A stretch of 47,870 bases of DNA from an uncultured Lachnospiraceae bacterium (GCA_964628455.1 CAZVPD010000002.1:1-47870); one strand, 5' to 3'. Shown: positions 19,099 to 47,870, numbered from the stretch's first letter. Numbers and translations: made by a program. The notes: a model not told the origin generated them from the letters alone.

Positions 19099-19127
19099 TT
19101 GACATGCGATGTCCGGGATGATATAAT
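19099..19127 (+). promoter_or_regulatory. Sigma-A type promoter for the glycosyltransferase gene
   Basis: TTGACA (19099-19104), a 17-nt spacer, then TGaTATAAT (19119-19127). Confidence 0.65.
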
Positions 19128-21259: not shown

Positions 21260-23461
21260 ATGAAAATCAGTACGATGATAAAATCCGGGGCAGTCATACT
21301 GCTCGTATCTTTTGTTTTGTTCTCGGCATATTCCTGCGAGTCGGAACCGGATACTGCCGGAACCGGGATTATAATCGGTGAAGACGGCTGGCTTTTTGAA
21401 GAGGAGGACGGCAAGTTCAGCGAACTCGGTGATTATACCGGAAAGACTTTATTTACGGAACAGGAACTGGAACAGATTCTTAAAACGGTTAAGGCCAAAC
21501 GTACTTTTTTCGCAAAAACGAATACCGATCTTATCATAGTGATCATTCCCGATAAAATGAATGTATACAGCGACCGGTTGCCTGCGGAGATCCGGGCGCA
21601 GCGCTCAGCCGATACCCGTATCAAGCAGGTATACGATTATATCAAAAAAAATACGCGGATAACAATGGTCGATTTAAGCGAACTTTTTTCGATGAATTAT
21701 ACGGCTTTTGACCTGTATGAGCGTACCGATTCCATGCTTTCCGATATGGGGGCTTATCTTGCATATACCGAAATAGTAAAAGCCGTCAATTCTTTGAATA
21801 TTGCCGAATTGAATCTTGCCGGACTTGATTCGTTTCTTGTGGATATAGCAGATGATCAGGGATTGGAATTTGCCGAACGTATAGACGCGCAGTCACGCTA
21901 TAAAAACAAAACGATATCTCTGACCTATAAAAACGAGCTGCCTTATATCGTTGAAGAAGCCGGCAAATATGATATCGAAAACCTGAGTGTTACGGTCATA
22001 GACGAAGACAAACGCGACCCCGCATTCAGATATACGAATTTGATGATTTACGGCACGGAAAATTTAAAAAAAATCGGGAATTTCACTTCCCTTACATTTA
22101 AAAGCGCAGGATACACCGAAGGATTCATCACGGATGCGGAGGCAACGACTGCATTGAAACCCAATCAGGCTGTTTTTTTGATCGGCGAAAAGGAATTAAA
22201 TGAACTGCTTGAAAACAAATCGGTCAACGAGGAGTTGCTGGCAAGTTCGGAGACAAATACACCTCCCCCTTCACAAGGACAGGAGAACGATCCCGATCCG
22301 GTACCTACTTCGCTCGAACTCATCCCGCCCGATGAAAACACATGCGCCGCTCCCATTGTAACCGGGAAAACGTTTGCGGACCCGGCGCGTCTTGTTGTCG
22401 CAGGTGTCACCGAAGCGGGTACGACGATTCATGCCTCCGGGGGCAGGGAAGAGCTCGAATATTACGCTTACGACGGAATATTTTTACTCGATATCGAATG
22501 CAGTCCCGAGGTTAAAAAGATCGAACTTTACGCTTATGCCGAAAATAAAAACAACAGCGAAATCACAACCGTTACCGTCACAGGTTCTATGAACAGAGAT
22601 GATAAGGGGGTGTGTATCGGGAAAGACGGTCATCTTCATATAAGCGCAACCATGTATGATTTTCTCGGTTCGAATTTATATCCTGCAGGAACTCTGTCGG
22701 CAAAGCGAAGAAATCTTGAAAAACAACTGTCGGAAATCAGGAAAGTTTCGCCGAATTCCAAACTGATCGTTATGATTGCGCCGAATCATTCGACCATCTA
22801 TCCCGAAACGATGCCGGACTGGCTTCAGGAACAAAGGCAGGAAAATGCGGATTCAAAACTCGGACAAATGTATAAGGAAATGCAGGGATCCGAGGTGATT
22901 TTCCCTAATCTGACAGAACTGCTTCTAAGTAAAAAAACCGACGATACGCTGCTGTATCAGAAAACCGATACGCACTGGAACGAACTGGGGGCGTATTATG
23001 CGTATGAGTATATCATGAATGAATATATAGCGCCCGATTTCCCTGCGGCTGCGGCGATCCCGCTCTCCGAATTCGAAGTTTTTACCAAATCTGTTCCCGG
23101 GGGAGATATGCTGAATTTTTTGGGTTTCAATCTCGATCTTGCACGGGAAATAGCCGTTTATGTGCGGCCTAAAACTTTTACATCGGTTACGGGCTATGAC
23201 AAACCTTTCAGAATGAATTTCGAGAACAACTGGACCAGCGAAACTCATGCGTTTAAAAAAGAAGATCCGGAACTGCCTTCTATGTTTATGACGCGCGATT
23301 CGTTCAGTACGAATCTGATCATGTTTTTTGCCGAAAACTTCAGGGAATCCTATTTTAACGGCATGTGGAGTTATAATATTGACATGGATTATATACGTCA
23401 GAACAAACCGGATTATGTGATCATTGAAGCTGTTGAAAGAAATATAGACGCAATAGGATGA
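21260..23461 (+). CDS. Exported double AlgX/AlgJ-type SGNH-like domain protein (N-terminal copy degenerate), paralog 1
   Basis: 733 aa with an N-terminal signal peptide (..LFSAYSC). N-terminal domain: IGEDGWLF, IIPDKMNVY, TDSML..GAYLAY. Then a PPPSQGQENDPDP linker and an Ig-like segment. C-terminal domain: IGKDGHL, IAPNHSTIYPE, QKTDTHWNELGAYYAY, RDSFS. Confidence 0.7.
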   Translation: MKISTMIKSGAVILLVSFVLFSAYSCESEPDTAGTGIIIGEDGWLFEEEDGKFSELGDYTGKTLFTEQELEQILKTVKAKRTFFAKTNTDLIIVIIPDKMNVYSDRLPAEIRAQRSADTRIKQVYDYIKKNTRITMVDLSELFSMNYTAFDLYERTDSMLSDMGAYLAYTEIVKAVNSLNIAELNLAGLDSFLVDIADDQGLEFAERIDAQSRYKNKTISLTYKNELPYIVEEAGKYDIENLSVTVIDEDKRDPAFRYTNLMIYGTENLKKIGNFTSLTFKSAGYTEGFITDAEATTALKPNQAVFLIGEKELNELLENKSVNEELLASSETNTPPPSQGQENDPDPVPTSLELIPPDENTCAAPIVTGKTFADPARLVVAGVTEAGTTIHASGGREELEYYAYDGIFLLDIECSPEVKKIELYAYAENKNNSEITTVTVTGSMNRDDKGVCIGKDGHLHISATMYDFLGSNLYPAGTLSAKRRNLEKQLSEIRKVSPNSKLIVMIAPNHSTIYPETMPDWLQEQRQENADSKLGQMYKEMQGSEVIFPNLTELLLSKKTDDTLLYQKTDTHWNELGAYYAYEYIMNEYIAPDFPAAAAIPLSEFEVFTKSVPGGDMLNFLGFNLDLAREIAVYVRPKTFTSVTGYDKPFRMNFENNWTSETHAFKKEDPELPSMFMTRDSFSTNLIMFFAENFRESYFNGMWSYNIDMDYIRQNKPDYVIIEAVERNIDAIG

Positions 23462-23498
23462 AAAACAAGCGGAGATCCGTTGTTATCTCATCCGTATC

Positions 23499-25625
23499 AT
23501 GCGAATGCGGGGTGTTGGTTTGAAATATAGGAATTTACGGCGGTTTTTGATGTTGATTATTTTACTTTTAACCGCTGCCGCAGCTTCATGCGGTAAAAAC
23601 GTTTCAAACGGAGTCATATTCGGCAGAAATAATTTTCTCTTCAACACAAATGCCGGCGGTTATGATTATATTGCCGATTTCAACGGTGAAATTCCCTATA
23701 CGGATGATGAGCTTCAGCTGATTTACAATGCGCTGAACAAACGGCAGCTTGCTTACGGCAACAGCGGGATCGCATATATGGTTGCCGTTATTCCGAATTC
23801 GCAGACCGTCTATCCGGAATATATGCCGTCAGAATACGGAGAATTAAGCGGAAGCACGAGACTGAAACAGGTCGCCGCATACGTTGAGCAGATGGGCGGT
23901 ATAAACATGCTCGATCTGACGCAGGTGCTGACGGAATCGAAAAACAAAGGCCAGCTGTATCATAATACCGAAAATTCGCTGAATGCCCTGGGCGCATATT
24001 ACGCGTATGCCGCTGTATACGAGCGGCTTCCGGAAAAAATGCGCACAAAGAATGTGTTGAATTCGGAACTTGTAAAGAAAGTCTCGAAAGAAAAAACAAA
24101 GGGATTGTCTCTTGCCGTCCTGTCCGGAGCCGACATTGAAAACAACACCTATTTTCTGAATATCGGCGATGAGGAAACAGTGTATTCGGTACTCGGCAGC
24201 ACAGAAATTCTGGTGTCGACTTACGTAAAAATCGGCTTCAAGGACAGGATCCCCACGGTGCCCGCAATTCTCCTGGATTTGGCCGATCAGTCCGACCTCG
24301 ATGTTTTTATGCCTTATTTTTCCAGCACTTACGGCAGCGTCGGATATAAGCTGAATTACAATTACAGCCCGGGGGCTGTAAATTCCGTGGCACCCAAAAC
24401 CGCAGTTCAGATTCTGCATGAGGATATGCTTTCCTCGCTCCTTGATGATGAAGTCAATCAGACGTATAACGCTGCCTTGAAGCCCGGAGACGACCCGACG
24501 ACTGCGATGACTCCCGTTCTGCTTTCAAAGGTAATGACCGACAGGAAAACAGCCTGTCTTATCGGAACGGTTGAAGCCGGTTCTGTGATAACGGTTTCCG
24601 GTCCGGGTTTGGAAACTTTCACGGCGTATCCGCAGCACGAACGCTTCTTTATTCCCGTTCCCCTCGATAAGGGCGAAAGCATTACGGTTTCTCTTATTGC
24701 TTCCGTTGAAGGCAAAAACAGCAGTTCCGCGCTTGAAGTACCCGTGGCATATTCCGAAGGTGCGGGAGGACTGACTGTTTTTGCGGGAAAATATTCGCAG
24801 CTGCATTATCCGGATACACTGGCCGATTATTACTGCACAAACCTGTTTACCGACAACCAGATGGTAAAAATGGAAAGCAGACTTTTGAAAAAACTCGCAA
24901 AAATACGCAAGGCGAGCGGCAGGGAAACGAAACTTTTATTTCTGATTCCGCCCGATGCCATCACGGCGTATCCGGAAACAGCAACGGATGAAATGACAGA
25001 AAAGAAAAAAAGCGACTACTCCCGCCTTAAGCAAATAGAGGATTATTATGCGGACAGCAAAGACATCATCATCGTCAACCTGACCGAAACGATGCTTCAG
25101 AATAAAGACAAAGGCAAATTGTATTACCAGACGGATACGCACTGGAATACTCTGGGGTCCTATTTGGGCTATTATAAAATGATGCAGGTTATCTCACGGG
25201 AATTTCCCGCGGCTGCGCCGCGTGAGATATCCGAATATAATATTTATCAGCAGTATGACGCCGGCGGTGACCTTGCGAATTTTCTCGGTGTCGATACCGG
25301 TCTGGTAAGCGAATATAAAACTTTCTGCACACCCTCTTTTACGAACCGGGCTGTCATCACCAACTATTTCAGCGGATCGCCGGATTATGTTTACAGCGAT
25401 CAGATAAAATGTGTCGTCGATAACAAAGAACTTCCCAATGCCATTATGATATGTGATTCATTCGGAGCCAATCTGCTTGATTTTGTAACGGACGCTTTCG
25501 GTATACTGGTTCGCCAGACTATGTGGGAGTATAAAACCGATACGGAACTGATCGCGGAAGTTCAGCCGGACTATTATATACAGGTTATGGTTGAGCGCAA
25601 TATGGCGAGTTTTGTAGTCGGATAA
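23499..25625 (+). CDS. Exported (lipobox) double AlgX/AlgJ-type SGNH-like domain protein, paralog 2
   Basis: 708 aa with signal peptide and lipobox LTAAAASC. Alternative starts are ATG 23505 and TTG 23520. N-terminal domain: VIPNSQTVYPE, NTENSLNALGAYYAY. C-terminal domain: LIPPDAITAYPE, YQTDTHWNTLGSYLGY, CDSFG. Confidence 0.7.
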   Translation: MRMRGVGLKYRNLRRFLMLIILLLTAAAASCGKNVSNGVIFGRNNFLFNTNAGGYDYIADFNGEIPYTDDELQLIYNALNKRQLAYGNSGIAYMVAVIPNSQTVYPEYMPSEYGELSGSTRLKQVAAYVEQMGGINMLDLTQVLTESKNKGQLYHNTENSLNALGAYYAYAAVYERLPEKMRTKNVLNSELVKKVSKEKTKGLSLAVLSGADIENNTYFLNIGDEETVYSVLGSTEILVSTYVKIGFKDRIPTVPAILLDLADQSDLDVFMPYFSSTYGSVGYKLNYNYSPGAVNSVAPKTAVQILHEDMLSSLLDDEVNQTYNAALKPGDDPTTAMTPVLLSKVMTDRKTACLIGTVEAGSVITVSGPGLETFTAYPQHERFFIPVPLDKGESITVSLIASVEGKNSSSALEVPVAYSEGAGGLTVFAGKYSQLHYPDTLADYYCTNLFTDNQMVKMESRLLKKLAKIRKASGRETKLLFLIPPDAITAYPETATDEMTEKKKSDYSRLKQIEDYYADSKDIIIVNLTETMLQNKDKGKLYYQTDTHWNTLGSYLGYYKMMQVISREFPAAAPREISEYNIYQQYDAGGDLANFLGVDTGLVSEYKTFCTPSFTNRAVITNYFSGSPDYVYSDQIKCVVDNKELPNAIMICDSFGANLLDFVTDAFGILVRQTMWEYKTDTELIAEVQPDYYIQVMVERNMASFVVG

Positions 25626-31289: not shown

Positions 31290-31318
31290 ATTATAATTTA
31301 TTTTGTTATAAATGTCAA
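31290..31318 (-). promoter_or_regulatory. Consensus sigma-A promoter for GH36-like paralog 2
   Basis: Minus strand reads TTGACA (rc of 31313-31318), a 17-nt spacer, then TATAAT (rc of 31290-31295). Confidence 0.65.
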
Positions 31319-36909: not shown

Positions 36910-36938
36910 TTGACAAGAATATCTGACGGATGTATAAT
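36910..36938 (+). promoter_or_regulatory. Sigma-A type promoter for the DUF1858 gene
   Basis: TTGACA (36910-36915), a 17-nt spacer, then TGTATAAT (36931-36938). Confidence 0.65.
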
Positions 36939-40526: not shown

Positions 40527-41633
40527 ATGATAGTAAAACTTGAAGAGGCGAGATATGCGCTTCAGGCTATACGCAGTGAAGTTACGGACCTGGGGTCGGC
40601 TCTGAAAGTCAATGATCTGAAAAACCGGATCGAAGAACTGGAAATGCAGACGACCGTCGAGAATTTCTGGGAAAATCAAAGTGAATCAAGCAGGATATTG
40701 AAAACAGTAAAAGTATTGAAAAATAAACTCGAAGCTTATGAAAATTTAGTCAGACGACTCGATGACACCGAAATGCTTGCCGATATGGCCATCGAGGAGA
40801 ATGATGAGAGCGTTTCCGATGAAATTATCAGGGATGTCAGTGAAATAAAAGCGGAAGAAAAACGGCAGCGGATCGAAGTCCTTCTTTCCGGCGAATATGA
40901 TTCAAACAACGCAATACTGGCGTTTCACCCCGGTGCAGGCGGTACGGAAGCACAGGACTGGGCTCTTATGCTCTACCGCATGTATGTCCGGTGGGGTGAA
41001 AAACACGGTTATAAAGTAAAGCTTCTCGACTGGCTGGACGGTGAGGAAGCGGGTCTGAAAAGCGCGACGATTTTAGTCGAAGGCATGAACGCTTACGGAT
41101 ATTTGAAAAGCGAAAACGGTGTTCACCGGCTGGTACGCGTTTCTCCTTTTGACGCTTCGGGCCGGCGGCACACGTCCTTTGCTTCGGTTGAGGTAATGCC
41201 CGAATTCGATGATGTTGACGGTAAGATCGAACTTCGCGACGAAGACCTGGAAATCACCGCCCACCGGGCAAGCGGTGCCGGCGGACAGCACATCAATAAA
41301 ACAGATTCCGCGATCAGAATTGTCCATATACCGACCGGTATTGTCGTCGGATGTCAGACAGAACGAAGTCAGCTTCAAAACAAGGAAACAGCATTAAAAA
41401 TGTTGAAATCAAAGCTTCTGGAAATTAAGCAGCGTGAAAATCTGGATAAAATCGATGACATTAAAGGAATAAAAACGAATATCGAATGGGGAGCTCAGAT
41501 ACGGTCATATGTTTTTATGCCTTACACATTGGTTAAAGATACCCGTACAGGCTGGGAAGACGGCGATGTTTCGGCGGTTATGGACGGAGAGATCGATGAA
41601 TTTATCAATGCATATTTAAAAGCCAACACCTAA
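40527..41633 (+). CDS. prfB: Peptide chain release factor 2 (single uninterrupted frame)
   Basis: 368 aa. SPF tripeptide (RVSPFD) and GGQ (SGAGGQHINK). Confidence 0.93.
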   Translation: MIVKLEEARYALQAIRSEVTDLGSALKVNDLKNRIEELEMQTTVENFWENQSESSRILKTVKVLKNKLEAYENLVRRLDDTEMLADMAIEENDESVSDEIIRDVSEIKAEEKRQRIEVLLSGEYDSNNAILAFHPGAGGTEAQDWALMLYRMYVRWGEKHGYKVKLLDWLDGEEAGLKSATILVEGMNAYGYLKSENGVHRLVRVSPFDASGRRHTSFASVEVMPEFDDVDGKIELRDEDLEITAHRASGAGGQHINKTDSAIRIVHIPTGIVVGCQTERSQLQNKETALKMLKSKLLEIKQRENLDKIDDIKGIKTNIEWGAQIRSYVFMPYTLVKDTRTGWEDGDVSAVMDGEIDEFINAYLKANT

Positions 41634-41660: not shown

Positions 41661-42014
41661 ATGTTGATGATTTTCAAGAAGTCGAAGCTTTATATCGGCA
41701 TTACGCTTGTCATTCAGGCGATATCTTTCGTTTCTCTTTTTTTCATGCTGTATTCGAAAAAACGCAGCTTTGCGAATGCTTTTCTGATACTGGGAATCAT
41801 CGGCGGTGCCGTGGGCGCTTATCTTCTTTATATGCAGAAAACAGAAGATGACCTTGAATTTGAAGATGATTTCGGTGAATTTCTCAGGCGGAAATATGAT
41901 GCCAACGAATGTTTCGAAGATGCCGACTTTGATACGGTTGACAAGCCGGAAGATGATTTCGGTGAAATCGTCATACCTGTCGATGATTCCGTAGACGAAA
42001 CGGAATTCAGCTGA
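41661..42014 (+). CDS. Small membrane protein with acidic C-terminal tail, function unknown
   Basis: 117 aa. Two hydrophobic helices, then a D/E-rich tail carrying two EDDFGE motifs. Confidence 0.55.
   Translation: MLMIFKKSKLYIGITLVIQAISFVSLFFMLYSKKRSFANAFLILGIIGGAVGAYLLYMQKTEDDLEFEDDFGEFLRRKYDANECFEDADFDTVDKPEDDFGEIVIPVDDSVDETEFS
41862..41966 (+). repeat. 18-nt perfect direct repeat inside the small membrane protein gene
   Basis: gaagatgatttcggtgaa occurs at 41862-41879 and 41949-41966, spaced 87 nt (29 codons) apart and in frame. Confidence 0.9.
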
Positions 42015-42019
42015 AATTA

Positions 42020-42050
42020 AATCGCCGTATCTGATTGATGCGGCGTTTTA
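42020..42050 (+). terminator. Candidate rho-independent terminator
   Basis: cgccg (42023-42027) / cggcg (42041-42045) with flanking at/at pairs, followed by TTTTA. Confidence 0.45.
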
Positions 42051-42070: not shown

Positions 42071-42099
42071 TTGACAGATATCGATTTATATATTATAAT
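42071..42099 (+). promoter_or_regulatory. Consensus sigma-A promoter of the NDH-2/prenyl/lipoprotein operon
   Basis: TTGACA (42071-42076), a 17-nt spacer, then TATAAT (42094-42099). Confidence 0.7.
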
Positions 42100-42181
42100 T
42101 TATTAATGATTTTATTGATCGCGGAAAATATCTTAATATATTACGTTTATTGCTTCTTGTAAATGTAAAAAGAGGAATATT

Positions 42182-44143
42182 ATGCAGAAAAACATTGTGG
42201 TTATCGGCGCGGGGTATGCCGGTGTATTGACGGCAAAAAAGCTGGCGGGTAAATTAAAAAAGAATTCGGATGTAAACATAACGATTATTGACAAAAATCC
42301 TTTTCATACCATGCTGACCGAACTGCATGAAGTCGCTGCTAACCGGGTTGATGAAGACAGCGTTAAACTCAGTCTTAAAAAAATATTTGCCGGCAGAAAT
42401 GTCGGTGTTAAGCTCGATACGGTCGTTTCCGTGGATTTTATCGGTAAGACAGTTATCGGCACCTGCGATAAATACGCTTATGATATTCTGGTCATGGCTG
42501 CCGGTTCACGGCCTACTTTTTTCGGTGTTCCGGGTGCGGATGAATACTCCTTTAAATTGTGGTCCTATGAAGATGCGGTCCTTTTAAAAAACCATATACA
42601 GAATTGTTTCAGAAAAGCCGCGGTGGAAACGGATATCGGCGCTAAAAAGAAGCTCCTTAGTTTTTTTGTGGTGGGAGCGGGATTTACCGGTACGGAGATG
42701 GCGGGGGAGCTGGCTGAATACGTTCCTATATTATGCGAAAGTTTCGAGATCGACCGGTCGATGGTACAAATCCGTTGTATCGATATCCTTCAGCGTGTGG
42801 TTCCCGCGCTTACGGAAAAACTTTCTGCAAAAGTCGAAAAAAGACTGAAAAAAACAGGGGTGGAATTATCCCTTAATACCGGCGTCGTCCGGATAGACAA
42901 AGATTATATCGAATTAAAAACGAATGATGTCACAACAAAAATGGAGTGCGGCACGGTCATCTGGGCGGCAGGGATCGAGAGCGCGCAAATCACCTGTCAG
43001 GCTTCCCTGGAGTTGCCGTCATCCAGAAGAAACAGACTTGATACCGATCAGTATCTGCGTTCGACAGGTGACAGCAGCGTTTTTGTAGTCGGTGATAATT
43101 TATGTTATACTCCGGAGGGTGAGAAAAATCCCGTTCCCCAGCTGGTTGAAAACTGCGAACAAAGTGCTGCCGTGGCTGCACACAACATCGCATGCGTTAT
43201 AAGCGATAAAACAGATTGCATGAAAGCATACAAACCGAGTTTTCACGGTGTTATGGTAAGTGTCGGAGGACGATACGGAACCGCTTTGGTCGGTATGCCG
43301 AATAAAATGTTCAGTCTGCCTTCGTTTTTAGCGATGTTCGTGAAGCATTTTATAAATATTATTTACTATATACAGGTACTCGGCTGGAATAAAACATTCA
43401 GCTATCTGAGGCACGAGTTTTTCACGATCAGACACAACCGCAGTTTTGTAGGCGGTCATCTTTCAAATAAAACGCCCAGTTTTCTGCTGATTTTCTTAAG
43501 GCTGTGGCTCGGAGCGGTCTGGCTTTTTGAAGGCGTTGTTAAGGTCGCTCAGGGATGGTTTACATCGCCGATGCTTACGGGTTTCTTCGGAGGATCAAAC
43601 GATTATTACAATTCGATTATAAACGGGGTGACAGCTGCCGCAGACGCGTCAAGCTCCGCTACTCCCGCTGCCGAAAGCGCGGTGACCTCGGTCGTTAAAG
43701 CGTTGATCAACTTTGATTTTCTGGGTTTAATTCGTTTTATACTGGTCGGCCCGAATGATATTGCCGTTGCAAAAATCGGAGATTTCGCATTTAAACTGGA
43801 TATTCCCCTTATGAACTGGTTTATCAGTGAAATTATACTGCCTAATAATATTATTCAGCTGGCGATGCAGATCTTTATTGTTGCAGCTGAAATTCTGATC
43901 GGCCTTTCCCTGATCGGCGGATTATTCACAACTCCGTCCGCTGCTTTGTCGCTTGTCCTGCAGGTGATGTTTGTTTGTACTACCGGTCTTTATCTGAATT
44001 CATTCTGGATGATTTTCGCCGCTGTTGCCCTTCTGATCGCTTCGGGCAGAATCCTCGGTCTCGATTATTATGTGATGCCTTATCTGAAAAAACAGTGGAA
44101 AAAAATACCGTTTGTAAAGAAGCTATATATCTACAATGATTAA
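42182..44143 (+). CDS. Type II NADH dehydrogenase (NDH-2) fused to a C-terminal polytopic DoxX/DoxD-like membrane domain
   Basis: 653 aa. IVVIGAGYAG and FVVGAGFTGTEMAGE dinucleotide folds, plus VFVVGDN. From about residue 400 there are several hydrophobic helices (LLIFLRLWLGAVWLFEGVVKV ...). Confidence 0.8.
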   Translation: MQKNIVVIGAGYAGVLTAKKLAGKLKKNSDVNITIIDKNPFHTMLTELHEVAANRVDEDSVKLSLKKIFAGRNVGVKLDTVVSVDFIGKTVIGTCDKYAYDILVMAAGSRPTFFGVPGADEYSFKLWSYEDAVLLKNHIQNCFRKAAVETDIGAKKKLLSFFVVGAGFTGTEMAGELAEYVPILCESFEIDRSMVQIRCIDILQRVVPALTEKLSAKVEKRLKKTGVELSLNTGVVRIDKDYIELKTNDVTTKMECGTVIWAAGIESAQITCQASLELPSSRRNRLDTDQYLRSTGDSSVFVVGDNLCYTPEGEKNPVPQLVENCEQSAAVAAHNIACVISDKTDCMKAYKPSFHGVMVSVGGRYGTALVGMPNKMFSLPSFLAMFVKHFINIIYYIQVLGWNKTFSYLRHEFFTIRHNRSFVGGHLSNKTPSFLLIFLRLWLGAVWLFEGVVKVAQGWFTSPMLTGFFGGSNDYYNSIINGVTAAADASSSATPAAESAVTSVVKALINFDFLGLIRFILVGPNDIAVAKIGDFAFKLDIPLMNWFISEIILPNNIIQLAMQIFIVAAEILIGLSLIGGLFTTPSAALSLVLQVMFVCTTGLYLNSFWMIFAAVALLIASGRILGLDYYVMPYLKKQWKKIPFVKKLYIYND

Positions 44144-45146
44144 TGAAAAAACAGCGTATGAAAATTCCGGTCGTTTTCTGACGTTTGAAGAGGCTAAAAT
44201 CCGGGTTGAATCCGAACTGACGGGAATACTTCTGTCGGCGCCGGATATTATCAGAATTTATACGGAGCATCTGACATTATCGAGAGGTAAATCCATACGC
44301 GCGGCGTCCTGTCTTGCCTGCGCGGAAAACAACGGGAAAGAAATTCATTCTGATGCGGTCAAGATCGCAGCCGCAATAGAATTGCTTCATCTTGCCTCTC
44401 TGGTTCATGACGATGTCATCGACAATGCGGCAACGCGCAGAGGAATCATAACCCTGCAGAAAAAATTCGGTAAAAGGACGGCTGTGATTTGCGGAGATTA
44501 CCTTCTTAGTCTTTGTTTAAAAATCGCCGGTTCTGTTTCCCGCGGAAAAGAGTTTGATAAAATCGATTTTCCGGATTATATAAGCCGGATATGTATCGGA
44601 GAACTGCAGCAGACTGTAAACAACCGGAACTATGATTTATCTTTTTATAATTATTTAAAAATCATATCCGGCAAAACGGCTTCTTTGTTTGAGGCAAGCT
44701 GCAGATCCGGCGCAGAAATATGCGATGATGTCCATAAAGATGAGATACGGCTTTACGCACAATTTGGTCGTTATATCGGACTGATATTTCAGCTGACCGA
44801 CGATTGTATCGATTATAGATCGACCGGCAGACTGGCAAAAAAACCCGTCCTCTCGGATTATAAACAGGGTGTGGTTACATTGCCTCTCATTTATACATTC
44901 GAAAAAAATAAAGAAATAAAAAACAAAGCGAAAACCGGCAAAGCATCCGTATCGGATATCAGTCTGGCGGTAAATAATGCGGAAGGAATTGCTTTTACCC
45001 GCATGATTTCAAAAAAGTATTACGATAAAGCGCTGTCTGTACTAAACCGCATCAGTGCGGGTTCCGAAAAAAAGGAGAAGTTGTATGCCTTATTGGACAG
45101 GGCATATAATTCGGAGATCCTTGGGCAGAATAATTCCGGGAGGTAA
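44136..45146 (+). CDS. Polyprenyl diphosphate synthase (trans-IPPS; DmkB/HepT-like)
   Basis: 336 aa. First Asp-rich motif LVHDDVIDN and second FQLTDDCIDY. 8-nt overlap with the NDH-2 stop. Confidence 0.85.
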   Translation: MINEKTAYENSGRFLTFEEAKIRVESELTGILLSAPDIIRIYTEHLTLSRGKSIRAASCLACAENNGKEIHSDAVKIAAAIELLHLASLVHDDVIDNAATRRGIITLQKKFGKRTAVICGDYLLSLCLKIAGSVSRGKEFDKIDFPDYISRICIGELQQTVNNRNYDLSFYNYLKIISGKTASLFEASCRSGAEICDDVHKDEIRLYAQFGRYIGLIFQLTDDCIDYRSTGRLAKKPVLSDYKQGVVTLPLIYTFEKNKEIKNKAKTGKASVSDISLAVNNAEGIAFTRMISKKYYDKALSVLNRISAGSEKKEKLYALLDRAYNSEILGQNNSGR

Positions 45147-45148
45147 TC

Positions 45149-46054
45149 TTGTTCAAACGCTATTTAAGCTATATCGAGGTATCAACCAAGATTACCAGCC
45201 TTTATGCTTTTTTAATGACGGTTTCATACTTGTTTTCGATCGGTCAGAAACCTGATCTCTTTAAATCTCTTGTGTTTTTTTTGTCGATGCTTCTTTTCGA
45301 TATGACCGCGACGGCGATAAACAATTACGAAGATACAAAAAACAACCGTCAGGAACTGCAGTTCAATCGTAAAACGGCCTTGAAGATCATTATTATTCAG
45401 CTTGCAGTCAGTTCGGGGCTTGGAATTTATCTTGCTTTAATAACCGATGCTGTCGTTCTGCTTCTCGGCATGCTGTGTTTCTTATTCGGAATCATCTATT
45501 CTTTTGGTCCCGTATCCATTTCCAGATTACCGCTCGGAGAATTCTTTTCCGGCTTGTTTTACGGATTGATGATCCCTTTCATACTATTGTATATCAATAT
45601 GCCCGAAGGTACATATCTGACTTATTCCGCAGATACGGTATCTGTTGATTTCTCTTTTAAAATAATACCTATCATACAAGTATTACTGCTTTCGATTGTT
45701 CCGTTTTGTGCGACGGCCGGCATCATGCTGGCAAATAATATATGTGATCTGCAGAAAGACACTGCCGTTAAAAGATTTACCCTGCCGTATTATATCGGGA
45801 CAAAAGCATCGTTGTATTTGTTCGCCGGTTTATATTATCTTATATATCTTGCGCTTATAATAATGGTTATCTTCGGCATGCTGCCGCCGATATGCCTGAT
45901 TTCGCTTTTTACTTTTATCCCGATACAGAAAAACATTGCAAAATTTCATGGCAAACAGGAAAAAGCGGTTACGTTTGTGCTTTCGGTCAAAAATTACCTG
46001 ATAATTATGACTTCTGTTACCGTTTTAATTTTTATAAGCGGATTATTCACATGA
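45149..46054 (+). CDS. UbiA-family aromatic prenyltransferase (MenA/DmkA-like)
   Basis: 301 aa, polytopic. TTG start 5 nt after a GGGAGG RBS. Motifs INNYEDTKNN and NNICDLQKD, resembling the MenA N-x-Y-x-D and NN-x-x-D-x-x-x-D blocks. Confidence 0.75.
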   Translation: MFKRYLSYIEVSTKITSLYAFLMTVSYLFSIGQKPDLFKSLVFFLSMLLFDMTATAINNYEDTKNNRQELQFNRKTALKIIIIQLAVSSGLGIYLALITDAVVLLLGMLCFLFGIIYSFGPVSISRLPLGEFFSGLFYGLMIPFILLYINMPEGTYLTYSADTVSVDFSFKIIPIIQVLLLSIVPFCATAGIMLANNICDLQKDTAVKRFTLPYYIGTKASLYLFAGLYYLIYLALIIMVIFGMLPPICLISLFTFIPIQKNIAKFHGKQEKAVTFVLSVKNYLIIMTSVTVLIFISGLFT

Positions 46055-46449
46055 AATTCGTAAAAAAAACGGATATTATAGTTTTATCCGCGATCATACT
46101 ATTCTGTTTTATTTTGTGGGGGACATACAGACTCCTTTATTCAAAAGCTCCTGCGACGGCGGAGATTTATTACGGCTCCGAACGGATTGAAACCATCTCA
46201 CTGACAGAGGGAACAGACAGAATTTTTTCCGTACCGCAGAATGAAAATGTCGTCTTTCACCTGTTTTCCGACGGAAGCATTTGCTTTGAAGCATCCGACT
46301 GCCGGGATAAAATATGTGTCCGTTCGGGAAAACTGCGTATGGTCGGCGAGACCGCCGTATGTCTTCCCAACAAATTAATATTAAAAATTGTGCGGAATGA
46401 TAAAAGGGTATCCGGAGATATGGATATGGTCATAGGCGCGGGAAGGTAA
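46051..46449 (+). CDS. NusG domain II (DUF1312)-containing membrane-anchored protein
   Basis: ORF 45892..46449. ATG 46051 is preferred (ATGA overlap with the upstream stop). 132 aa: one N-terminal TM segment, then ..EASDCRDKICVRSG....GETAVCLPNKLILKI. Confidence 0.7.
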   Translation: MKFVKKTDIIVLSAIILFCFILWGTYRLLYSKAPATAEIYYGSERIETISLTEGTDRIFSVPQNENVVFHLFSDGSICFEASDCRDKICVRSGKLRMVGETAVCLPNKLILKIVRNDKRVSGDMDMVIGAGR

Positions 46450-46453
46450 TGCA

Positions 46454-47008
46454 GTGGGCAAATATTATGCGCACAATATCACGCAGAATTCATTTAAAAC
46501 CAGAGAAATCGTATTGACCGGTATCTTGTTTGCAGTCGCGATCGTTCTTTCATTTGTGGAAAACTCACTGCAGCTTCCGTTTATCGCTCCCGGAGTTAAA
46601 TTCGGTCTGTCTAATATCGTCGTTATGTATTCATTGTTTTTTCTGGGTAAAAGCAGAGCATTTTTACTTGCACTTCTGAAAGCTCTGTTTGTATTCGCCA
46701 CCAGAGGAGCTGTTTCGGGAATTCTGAGTCTATGCGGAGGGGTGCTTTCGATAGGGATCATGTCCCTGCTGCTGATTGTTTTTAAAGACAGGATTTCTTA
46801 TCTTCTTTTGAGTGTGACCGGTTCTGTTTTTCATAATTTGGGACAGCTGACCGCCGTATCGATTATTTATACAAACATATTGATATGGTTATACCTTCCC
46901 ATATTGCTGATAACGGGGATTATAGCCGGAATTATTACGTCGACTCTTTTAAAAGTTAGCTTGACAGCCTTCAATAAGCTGTTTGAGATAAAAAAAATAA
47001 ATTTATAG
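46454..47008 (+). CDS. Gx-transporter clan protein (Hpre_diP_synt_I family; ECF S-component-like, EetB-like candidate)
   Basis: 184 aa with a GTG start. Five or six TM helices. TREIVLTGILFAVAIVLSFVE....PGVKFGLSNIVVM signature. Confidence 0.65.
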   Translation: MGKYYAHNITQNSFKTREIVLTGILFAVAIVLSFVENSLQLPFIAPGVKFGLSNIVVMYSLFFLGKSRAFLLALLKALFVFATRGAVSGILSLCGGVLSIGIMSLLLIVFKDRISYLLLSVTGSVFHNLGQLTAVSIIYTNILIWLYLPILLITGIIAGIITSTLLKVSLTAFNKLFEIKKINL

Positions 47009-47017
47009 GAGAAATGT

Positions 47018-47870
47018 ATGAAAATTATTGTCGCTTCTTTTGGTTGTGATTTTTGCCGTATCTGCTCTTGCGGGATGCGGCGGTTCTGCGGATTCTGTTA
47101 AAACAGGGCTTGCGGTCGTCAGTTCGATATCAAAATCCAAAGACGTCGCAGACGGAGTCGGTCTTGCAGAGATGGATACGATGGTTTATGCCGTTACAGT
47201 TGATAACGCAGGGAAAATCGTTAAATGCGTGATCGATTCAGTTCAGACAAAAGTAAACTTTGATGATACCGGAAAAATCACGACTCCGCTTGATACGGTT
47301 GTTCAGACAAAGAACGAACTCGGTGACGGATACGGCATGAGATCCTCTTCTGCTATCGGAAAAGAATGGAACGAACAGGCATCCAGCTTTGCCGCTTATG
47401 TTGCAGGCAAAACGGCAGGCGAAATAGCCGGTATCGCCGTGGATGCGGAATCATATCCCACGGGTGCCGACCTTACCTCGTCGGTTACGGTTCATGTAGG
47501 CGATTTTATTACGGGCATACAAAAAGCAATGGAAAATGCAAAAGATATCGGATCCGGCAAAGAAGACAAACTGGGACTCGGTGTTTATACCACCATTGAC
47601 AGATCCGCCGATGCAGGCGAAGAACCCGGCCTGGCACAGGCATATTCATTTTATGCCGTGACGACCACAAACGCAGACGGGCTCATAACCGGCTGTATTT
47701 TAGACGGTTCTCAGACGAATGTGAACTTTGACACAAGCGGAAAGATCACAACCGATTTAAACACCGCATTTAAAACAAAGAACGAACTCGGAAATGATTA
47801 CGGCATGAAAGCGCAGTCCGGTATCGGTAAAGAGTGGTTTGAGTGGCTGATGCTTCAAGAGATTCCGTTT
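47018..47870 (+). CDS. Repeat-domain lipoprotein (PplA-position, FMN-bind-like?), 5' frameshift, 3' end outside window
   Basis: AGGAG (47007-47011) lies 6 nt before ATG 47018, but that frame stops at 47099. The long open frame (47022 to the window end) reads KLLSLLLVVIFAVSALAGCGGS.., a canonical lipobox, and has no ATG. The two frames join across the A4 run at 47021-47024. Two ~156-aa repeats follow. Confidence 0.6.

Follow-up and report, generated by a model that had tools for sequence, protein, structure and literature searches.

The closest described relatives of the locus analysed here are the loci for flavin-based extracellular electron transfer (EET; FLEET where the flavin-based system is meant) of Listeria and of lactic-acid bacteria. 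In Listeria monocytogenes, the FLEET/EET locus reportedly reads fmnA-dmkA-fmnB-pplA / ndh2-eetA-eetB-dmkB (Light et al. 2018). We have analysed a stretch of 47,870 nucleotides from an uncultured Lachnospiraceae bacterium (GCA_964628455.1, CAZVPD010000002.1:1-47870; 'the window' below means this whole stretch), at the end of which a consensus promoter is followed by six tightly packed genes, here called g1 to g6. An original prediction, made from the sequence alone, had taken these genes for a rearranged flavin-based EET module. Our analysis supports it through pairwise matches to the Listeria proteins, a full-length Ndh2 alignment and the finding of an ApbE gene, g7, just past the window end. 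We consider it likely that the locus is the Clostridial version of the Listeria FLEET locus, with one promoter and seven translationally coupled genes.

Several properties of the described systems bear on the comparison. EetB is an ECF-S-like exporter of flavin adenine dinucleotide (FAD) that is needed for flavinylation of the lipoprotein PplA (Rivera-Lugo et al. 2023, PMC9973259). The ECF-T and ATPase subunits are partially redundant in Listeria, and deletion of eetA in that organism gave no EET phenotype (PMC9973259); work on Lactiplantibacillus plantarum implicates EetA in flavin-dependent transfer. The same survey treats PF07456 as the family defining eetB, labels NusG_II (PF07009) as EetA in its Data Set S1, lists the EET-type NADH dehydrogenase (NDH-2) there as Pyr_redox_2 plus DoxD, and maps the co-localisation of eetB with EET genes across GTDB (PMC9973259). 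An operational definition of EET asks for an NADH dehydrogenase (K03885) that has a transmembrane helix and whose gene lies in a flavinylation-associated (apbE) cluster (PMC8238504).

Homology to the Listeria FLEET proteins

As a reference we used the locus of Listeria cossartiae (L203), whose FmnB and that of L. monocytogenes in PDB 7esa are 98% identical; the FmnB sequence was read from the profile alignment to PDB 7esa/7f39 and used to retrieve the Listeria and Enterococcus loci. In L203, dmkB, eetB, eetA and ndh2 lie on one strand, and pplA, fmnB, dmkA and fmnA on the other. Pfam assigns Pyr_redox_2 and DoxX to its Ndh2, PF07456 to EetB (171.6 bits), polyprenyl_synt to DmkB, UbiA to DmkA, two stretches of FMN_bind to PplA and CbiQ to FmnA. 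Six of the seven operon proteins match Listeria FLEET proteins pairwise, with E-values from 1e-10 to 5e-113, the Pfam families agree between the two loci, and Enterococcus casseliflavus homologues match g1-g5 and g7.

The product of g1 carries Pyr_redox_2 on residues 4-328 (Pfam, E 2.8e-39) and aligns by BLASTP with Listeria Ndh2 at 34% identity over residues 2-653 (E 5e-113). Its last 250 residues contain overlapping hydrophobic segments, about four to five membrane spans by hydropathy. This C-terminal domain by itself is 26% identical to the C-terminus of Listeria Ndh2 (E 3e-22), as expected from the earlier proposal of an NDH-2 with a Listeria-like polytopic extension. It weakly matches DoxD (E 0.0027); among 26 members of the C-terminal family, weak matches to MauE were found in 17, to DoxX in 15 and to DoxD in 12, and the C-terminus of Listeria Ndh2 itself matches DoxX. 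A profile of the domain gave no match in the PDB. With these hydrophobic segments in g1 and apbE in the same operon (see below), the locus has the composition given in the operational definition of PMC8238504, K03885 being taken by homology.

The next two genes would supply a quinone. The g2 product matches polyprenyl_synt (Pfam, E 8.5e-55), contains the motifs DDVID and DDCID, and is 36% identical to Listeria DmkB (BLASTP, E 6e-50); its nearest NCBIfam models are hexaprenyl and heptaprenyl synthases (HepT), under whose cut-offs it scores. The g3 product matches UbiA (Pfam, E 1.9e-17) and is 39% identical to Listeria DmkA over its full length (BLASTP, E 3e-70), while on the MenA model NF004752 it reaches 237.7 bits against a cut-off of 289. 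Motifs and Pfam matches alike bear out the predicted polyprenyl synthase and MenA-like UbiA prenyltransferase.

Judged by its sequence, g4 is an EetA homologue, since Listeria EetA itself matches NusG_II (105.7 bits) and Data Set S1 of PMC9973259 gives PF07009 that label. The g4 product has an N-terminal membrane anchor by hydropathy, matches NusG_II with 76 bits (Pfam, E 3.1e-21) and is 29% identical to Listeria EetA (BLASTP, E 1e-10). The original prediction had recognised the NusG-II domain and left the protein without a role; the domain stands, and the protein now has a place in the system. A triad of cysteines, C84, C89 and C104, is common to g4, the Listeria and Enterococcus EetA proteins and PDB 4esn, with C-x-D-x-x-C...C-L-P invariant in the alignment; the Listeria paralogue Lin0431 (PDB 2kpp) is without the first two of these cysteines. 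The triad may be a metal or disulfide site. The g5 product, correctly described beforehand as a Gx-clan, ECF S-component-like membrane protein, matches Hpre_diP_synt_I (PF07456) with 121.5 bits (Pfam, E 3.9e-35) and Listeria EetB at 35% identity (BLASTP, E 6e-22), as a homologue of EetB would.

An ApbE gene completes the operon beyond the window

Looking up the exact sequence of g5 led to the Logan contigs L001 and L002, both of which match the window at 99.75% identity. Past the window end, L001 completes g6 (332 residues at full length); 27 nt after g6 comes an ApbE gene, g7, and then a strong terminator whose 18-bp stem directly follows the g7 stop; beyond it lie sporulation and ScpA/ScpB genes on the opposite strand. 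The g7 product has a signal peptide with Cys20 and scores 215.9 bits on Pfam ApbE. It is 30% identical to Listeria FmnB (BLASTP, E 5e-34), and its family profile matches Listeria FmnB of PDB 7esa with 175.6 bits (E 1.5e-50). Because L001 shows the ApbE gene and the terminator after g6, we describe the locus as a seven-gene operon with its own flavin transferase. This overturns the earlier statement that no ApbE-type transferase (FmnB) was visible, which held for the window and failed just downstream of it, and it extends the proposed six-gene operon, all of whose six genes are present in the window, by one.

The module is conserved across Clostridia

Conservation was assessed in the loci of g1 relatives in 80 Clostridial genomes. 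These relatives are 59-72% identical to g1 over the full length, nearly all of them covering residues 1-653, and their carriers include Oscillospiraceae, Lachnospiraceae, Ruminiclostridium, Anaerocolumna, Anaerovoracaceae, Sedimentibacter and Tissierellia. Half of the loci (40/80) have the identical seven-gene order, and in 70/80 g6 is directly followed by g7. The commonest departure concerns eetA and eetB, which are missing between dmkA and the lipoprotein gene in 20/80 loci; several of those have them, some as divergent copies, after apbE. A few loci are without dmkA or dmkB, and one, L076 from Clostridium aminobutyricum, is without the lipoprotein. L076 is among the loci recorded as variants, the others being L034, L078, L049, L055, L059 and about 20 more. 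Apart from the module itself, no gene is common to more than 11 of the 80 loci, and neither FmnA, men genes nor reductases appear as further conserved neighbours; we therefore regard the module as self-contained and its surroundings as variable.

g6 defines a family of repeat-containing lipoproteins

The protein in the position of PplA is a lipoprotein with a signal peptide and an LAGC lipobox, built of two repeats of about 155 residues that are 52% identical to each other. It has more than 2000 homologues, which are unnamed or called 'hypothetical protein' save for two evidently mis-assigned JGI names; just one of the listed homologues carries a Pfam entry, the unrelated PF00541. An exhaustive HMMER search gathered 1,895 clusters at 50% identity with E <=1e-3, of which 743 had E <=1e-30. 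Most of the family is Clostridial, and it includes at least one spirochaete protein; two-domain members predominate (252 of 268), with 10 four-domain and two six-domain proteins besides.

Each domain of the family ends in [DE]-L-x-[SA]-[SG]-[VCA]-[TS]. In g6 this motif is D-L-T-S-S-V-T, with the Thr invariant in both repeats; that of domain 2, T314, lies past the window end. Across the family, 551 of 554 domains have T or S at the aligned acceptor column, with D or E at motif position 1, and some members have DLASGAT, DLISGAT, DLSSGAT or DLLAGAT in the same column. Against the PDB, the family profile had a single match, 2kzx (E 8.6e-4 to 1.1e-3), which aligns DLTSSVT on DAISGAT; Pfam recognises the matched part of 2kzx as FMN_bind, with a score (25.7 bits) that exceeds the cut-off. 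A comparison by hhalign of 541 g6-type domains with 39 Bacilli PplA domains gave E 2.8e-5 with the motifs in register, and a g6 domain profile against a single PplA sequence was not significant (E 0.084). The g6 Thr is aligned on the flavinylated SGAT Thr of both 2kzx and Listeria PplA. One family member from a Logan contig, P0141 (469 residues), has a canonical FMN_bind domain (residues 53-125, 56.8 bits) fused to two g6-type domains, one of them with DLISGAT.

Relatives with more domains occur in another setting. A six-domain relative from Sphaerochaetaceae (L285, 8001-18410) and a four-domain relative (L286, 7063-13824) are encoded immediately 5' of apbE and of an rnfCDGEA operon in which eetA and eetB are also found, which suggests that multi-flavin Rnf extensions use the same unannotated domain.

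We conclude that g6 would take the functional place of PplA, to which it is remotely homologous; it is not a canonical PplA/FMN_bind member, and it is very probably an ApbE substrate. The original idea of a lipoprotein of repeated domains standing in for PplA is upheld by the lipobox, the two repeats and the remote PplA link; what it lacks is a direct match to FMN_bind or PplA. A broader proposal is possible, if somewhat doubtful: that the g6 family as a whole consists of extracytosolic flavoproteins with the acceptor site [DE]-L-x-[SA]-[SG]-[VC]-T, which replace PplA in Ndh2/quinone modules and, as four- and six-domain forms, extend Rnf outward.

Alternative explanations

The points that weigh against reading the locus as a FLEET module with g6 as its flavinylated carrier concern g6 for the most part. 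Pfam finds FMN_bind neither in g6 nor in 64 members of its family, nothing in NCBIfam recognises g6 as FMN_bind, and BLASTP gives no match between g6 and Listeria PplA. The hhalign probability for g6-type against PplA domains is just 74%. An AlphaFold model of a 94%-identical g6 homologue (pLDDT 93.7; 90.1 for a single-domain model) shows three long strands per domain, and Foldseek searches with the whole-protein and single-domain models found no FMN-binding structure in the top 50 PDB matches; the whole protein reached at best E 0.0019 and the single domain E 0.028, with low TM-scores and unrelated hits (IscU, MHC, NTF2-like). Compared with D-x-x-[S/T]-G-A-[S/T], the g6 motif agrees at the D, at the S in fourth place and at the closing T, and has S for G and V for A. 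In addition, FmnA/CbiQ (ECF-T) was found neither in the operon, the window or L001 nor as a conserved neighbour in the 80 loci, and the ATG at 47018 that stands behind a ribosome-binding site does not, in the window, share the frame of g6. Much of this could mean that g6 is not a flavoprotein, that ApbE, EetA and EetB mature other substrates such as RnfG and RnfD, and that g6 has some other role, for example in ligand binding; that the ApbE-EetA-EetB trio adjoins Rnf operons in many Clostridia (PMC9973259) would fit this reading, as do the missing Pfam and structural matches to FMN-binding domains and the missing G-A pair. We nevertheless regard this as improbable. An acceptor T or S in nearly every domain, preceded by D or E at the first motif position, is hard to reconcile with it, and so are the canonical SGAT variants in the same column, the 2kzx and PplA profile links that put the motifs in register, the place directly 5' of apbE in 70/80 Ndh2-type loci and also in Rnf-type loci, and the member fused to a canonical FMN_bind domain. 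Single changes of G to A or A to V in the motif gave about 50% flavinylation in a tested ApbE substrate (PMC12052999).

The frame of g6 raises the further question of whether the module is disabled in this strain, with g6 a pseudogene or phase-variable. Following the g6 ATG, the window has a run of four A (A4), and both L001 and L002, two independent near-identical assemblies, have six (A6); the 2 nt that are missing part the g6 frame from the ATG and its ribosome-binding site; the sole in-frame start left in the window is a TTG at 47028, about 16 nt from AGGAG, which would deprive the signal peptide of its Lys-Lys n-region. Such a defect is unlikely, however, given that homopolymer length errors are common in assemblies, that the window's final 28 nt (47843-47870) do not match L001, altering the last nine or so codons of the truncated g6 and suggesting poor quality at the contig end, and that g6 is otherwise intact and differs from L001 by just 3 substitutions. 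Both the shorter A-run and the 28-nt divergence look like assembly problems at the contig end, and the divergent 28 nt are probably an artefact of it. A more conventional account would be ordinary menaquinone biosynthesis with a respiratory NDH-2, in which g2 and g3 feed the general quinone pool and the downstream genes are unrelated passengers. NDH-2 enzymes normally feed respiratory quinone pools, and HepT and MenA are the nearest NCBIfam models of g2 and g3. Against this, both proteins fall under the HepT and MenA equivalog cut-offs yet align along their whole length with DmkB and DmkA of Listeria; menF/D/H/C/E/B and menG/ubiE are absent from the window and from the conserved neighbours of the 80 loci; the genes are translationally coupled with eetA, eetB, the lipoprotein gene and apbE, and the module that they form is conserved among Clostridia; and the NDH-2 bears the EET-type DoxX-like C-terminal domain. 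On the sub-cut-off scores, the absence of men genes from the window and the conserved neighbours, and the coupling to EET genes we rejected an ordinary menaquinone operon, which we regard as highly improbable.

A proposed mechanism

On the FLEET reading, a rough scheme can be proposed, the biochemical steps of which, flavinylation of g6 included, we infer from homology to the characterised Listeria proteins. DmkB (g2) would make a long polyprenyl diphosphate, which DmkA (g3) would join to 1,4-dihydroxy-2-naphthoate (DHNA) to give membrane demethylmenaquinone. Ndh2 (g1), held at the membrane by its DoxX-like C-terminal domain, would then oxidise cytosolic NADH and reduce this dedicated demethylmenaquinone. 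EetB (g5) would export FAD, with EetA (g4) as its conserved partner and with housekeeping ECF-T and ATPase subunits expected from elsewhere in the genome; there being no FmnA/ECF-T in the operon or window, FAD export must rely on genes elsewhere. On the outer side, the lipoprotein ApbE/FmnB (g7) would use FAD to attach flavin mononucleotide (FMN) covalently to Thr158 and Thr314 of g6, and g6 could take electrons from the quinol and hand them to acceptors outside the membrane, candidates being ferric iron, free flavins or flavinylated extracytosolic reductases.

If the scheme holds, FLEET of Listeria and lactic-acid bacteria extends to a spore-forming Clostridial lineage, as a compact seven-gene module conserved in many Clostridia, including the cultured Ruminiclostridium, Anaerocolumna, Sedimentibacter and Sinanaerobacter. 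The module could serve to predict which anaerobes are able to dump NADH electrons outside the cell, onto iron, electrodes or extracytosolic reductases. As g6 goes unseen by domain models and its putative flavinylation site is non-canonical, counts of flavinylated carriers that are based on FMN_bind or [S/T]GA[S/T] may be too low; should the g6 family indeed be flavinylated at S-S-V-T, the recognised ApbE motif would have to be broadened, and so would the census of flavin-based electron export among anaerobes.

Operon layout and other genes of the window

The coordinates are collected in Table 1. The perfect promoter and the six same-strand genes with their 8-nt and ATGA overlaps are all present as first described, and successive genes from g1 to g6 overlap or are separated by no more than 9 nt. 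The window has four perfect TTGACA-17-TATAAT sites, each 5' of a gene, where shuffled sequence would lead one to expect 0.03, and we therefore take them to be real signals in this organism. In the 83-nt leader, an Rfam scan found no riboswitch or other Rfam element, and a scan for inverted repeats found no obvious operator.

Table 1. Features of the EET-type operon and perfect promoter sites, in window coordinates.
Feature	Coordinates	Strand	Basis or remark
Terminator-like hairpin, 9-bp stem (6 G-C pairs) then T-run	42023..42045	+	Closes upstream 117-aa gene; 5' boundary of operon
Promoter, sigma-70-type, TTGACA-17-TATAAT	42071..42099	+	12/12 match; ahead of g1-g6
g1, Ndh2-type NADH dehydrogenase, 653 aa	42182..44143	+	Pyr_redox_2; Listeria Ndh2 homology
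g1 C-terminal DoxX/DoxD-like polytopic membrane domain, aa 381-653	43322..44140	+	Hydropathy; homology to Listeria Ndh2 C-terminus
g2, DmkB-like long-chain polyprenyl diphosphate synthase	44136..45146	+	polyprenyl_synt; 8-nt overlap with g1
g2 motif DDVID	44409..44423	+	
g2 motif DDCID	44799..44813	+	
g3, DmkA-like DHNA polyprenyltransferase, UbiA family	45149..46054	+	UbiA; Listeria DmkA homology
g4, EetA homologue	46051..46449	+	NusG_II; ATGA overlap with g3
g4 cysteine triad	46300..46362	+	C84, C89, C104
g5, EetB homologue, putative ECF-S-like FAD export subunit, Gx clan	46454..47008	+	PF07456
g6, two-domain surface lipoprotein, PplA position	47018..47870	+	Frame runs from 47022; cut by window end
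g6 domain 1 predicted flavinylation motif D152-L-T-S-S-V-T158	47469..47489	+	Aligned acceptor Thr
Other perfect promoter site	19099..19127	+	
Other perfect promoter site	31290..31318	-	
Other perfect promoter site	36910..36938	+	

Just 5' of the operon lies an open reading frame (ORF) for 117 residues (41661-42014) whose product is hydrophobic in its N-terminal half and very acidic in its C-terminal half; it has no Pfam match and is conserved in L001 and L002. Elsewhere, the window holds housekeeping genes and genes of carbohydrate metabolism. Among them are two tandem paralogues (21260-25625) of about 710-730 residues each, with AlgX-like SGNH and DHHW domains, which are candidate polysaccharide O-acetylation proteins. 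A programmed +1 frameshift is common in prfB; the release factor 2 gene of the window (40527-41633; PCRF and RF-1 domains) is one uninterrupted ORF for 368 residues with no sign of such a frameshift.

Comparison with known systems

The locus shares with the Listeria FLEET locus homologues of Ndh2, its C-terminal domain included, DmkA, DmkB, EetA, EetB and FmnB, and a two-domain lipoprotein in the position of PplA. It departs from the Listeria archetype in three respects. All genes are on one strand, in the order ndh2-dmkB-dmkA-eetA-eetB-lipoprotein-apbE, whereas the Listeria genes form two divergent blocks; comparison with L203 thus agrees with the difference in gene order noted in the original prediction. 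FmnA, the CbiQ/ECF-T component, is lacking here, as had also been noted from the window and as the downstream sequence and the conserved neighbours continue to show. Finally, g6 is a divergent two-domain lipoprotein with domains of about 155 residues, the motif DLTSSVT as a non-canonical putative flavinylation site and no FMN_bind, in contrast to the FMN_bind domains of about 115 residues with VSGAT in PplA.

The cad (cAD1 precursor)/ndh3 locus of Enterococcus faecalis and the FLEET locus of L. plantarum have the same gene set as ours and proteins of similar size, for example about 648 residues for the NADH dehydrogenase and about 185 for EetB (PMC7074142, PMC9888254). Their lipoproteins differ from g6 in having canonical SGAT or TGAT motifs (PMC7074142, PMC9888254), and [ST]GA[ST] is found in 35 of the 39 Bacilli PplA domains.

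By description only, the g6 family is similar to FMN-bind2, which comprises domains of about 160 residues with no InterPro entry, repeated two or four (in some cases six) times, whose paired beta-sheets form a pseudo-symmetric two-flavin unit (Huang et al. 2024, PMC11334425). Domains of about 155 residues, the lack of a Pfam match, the two, four or six copies and the three long strands per domain all fit that account; this is a likeness in description, and no motif of the S-S-V-T type is reported in the text of PMC11334425 that was consulted. Among the cluster members listed for the g6 family, no accession matches the published Hujiaoplasma 6xFMN_Bind2 protein, with which the six-domain members were compared.

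The Rnf-associated clusters described in PMC9973259 share with our locus the trio apbE, eetA and eetB, and multi-domain proteins of the g6 family stand directly 5' of apbE there as well. They differ in their electron input, which is Rnf (ferredoxin/NAD) in those clusters and would be Ndh2 with a dedicated quinone in the operon analysed here. Since the locus has the composition of the published operational EET definition, and since clusters of eetB with EET genes have already been surveyed across GTDB, the cluster type is known biology, a widespread variant of a known system.

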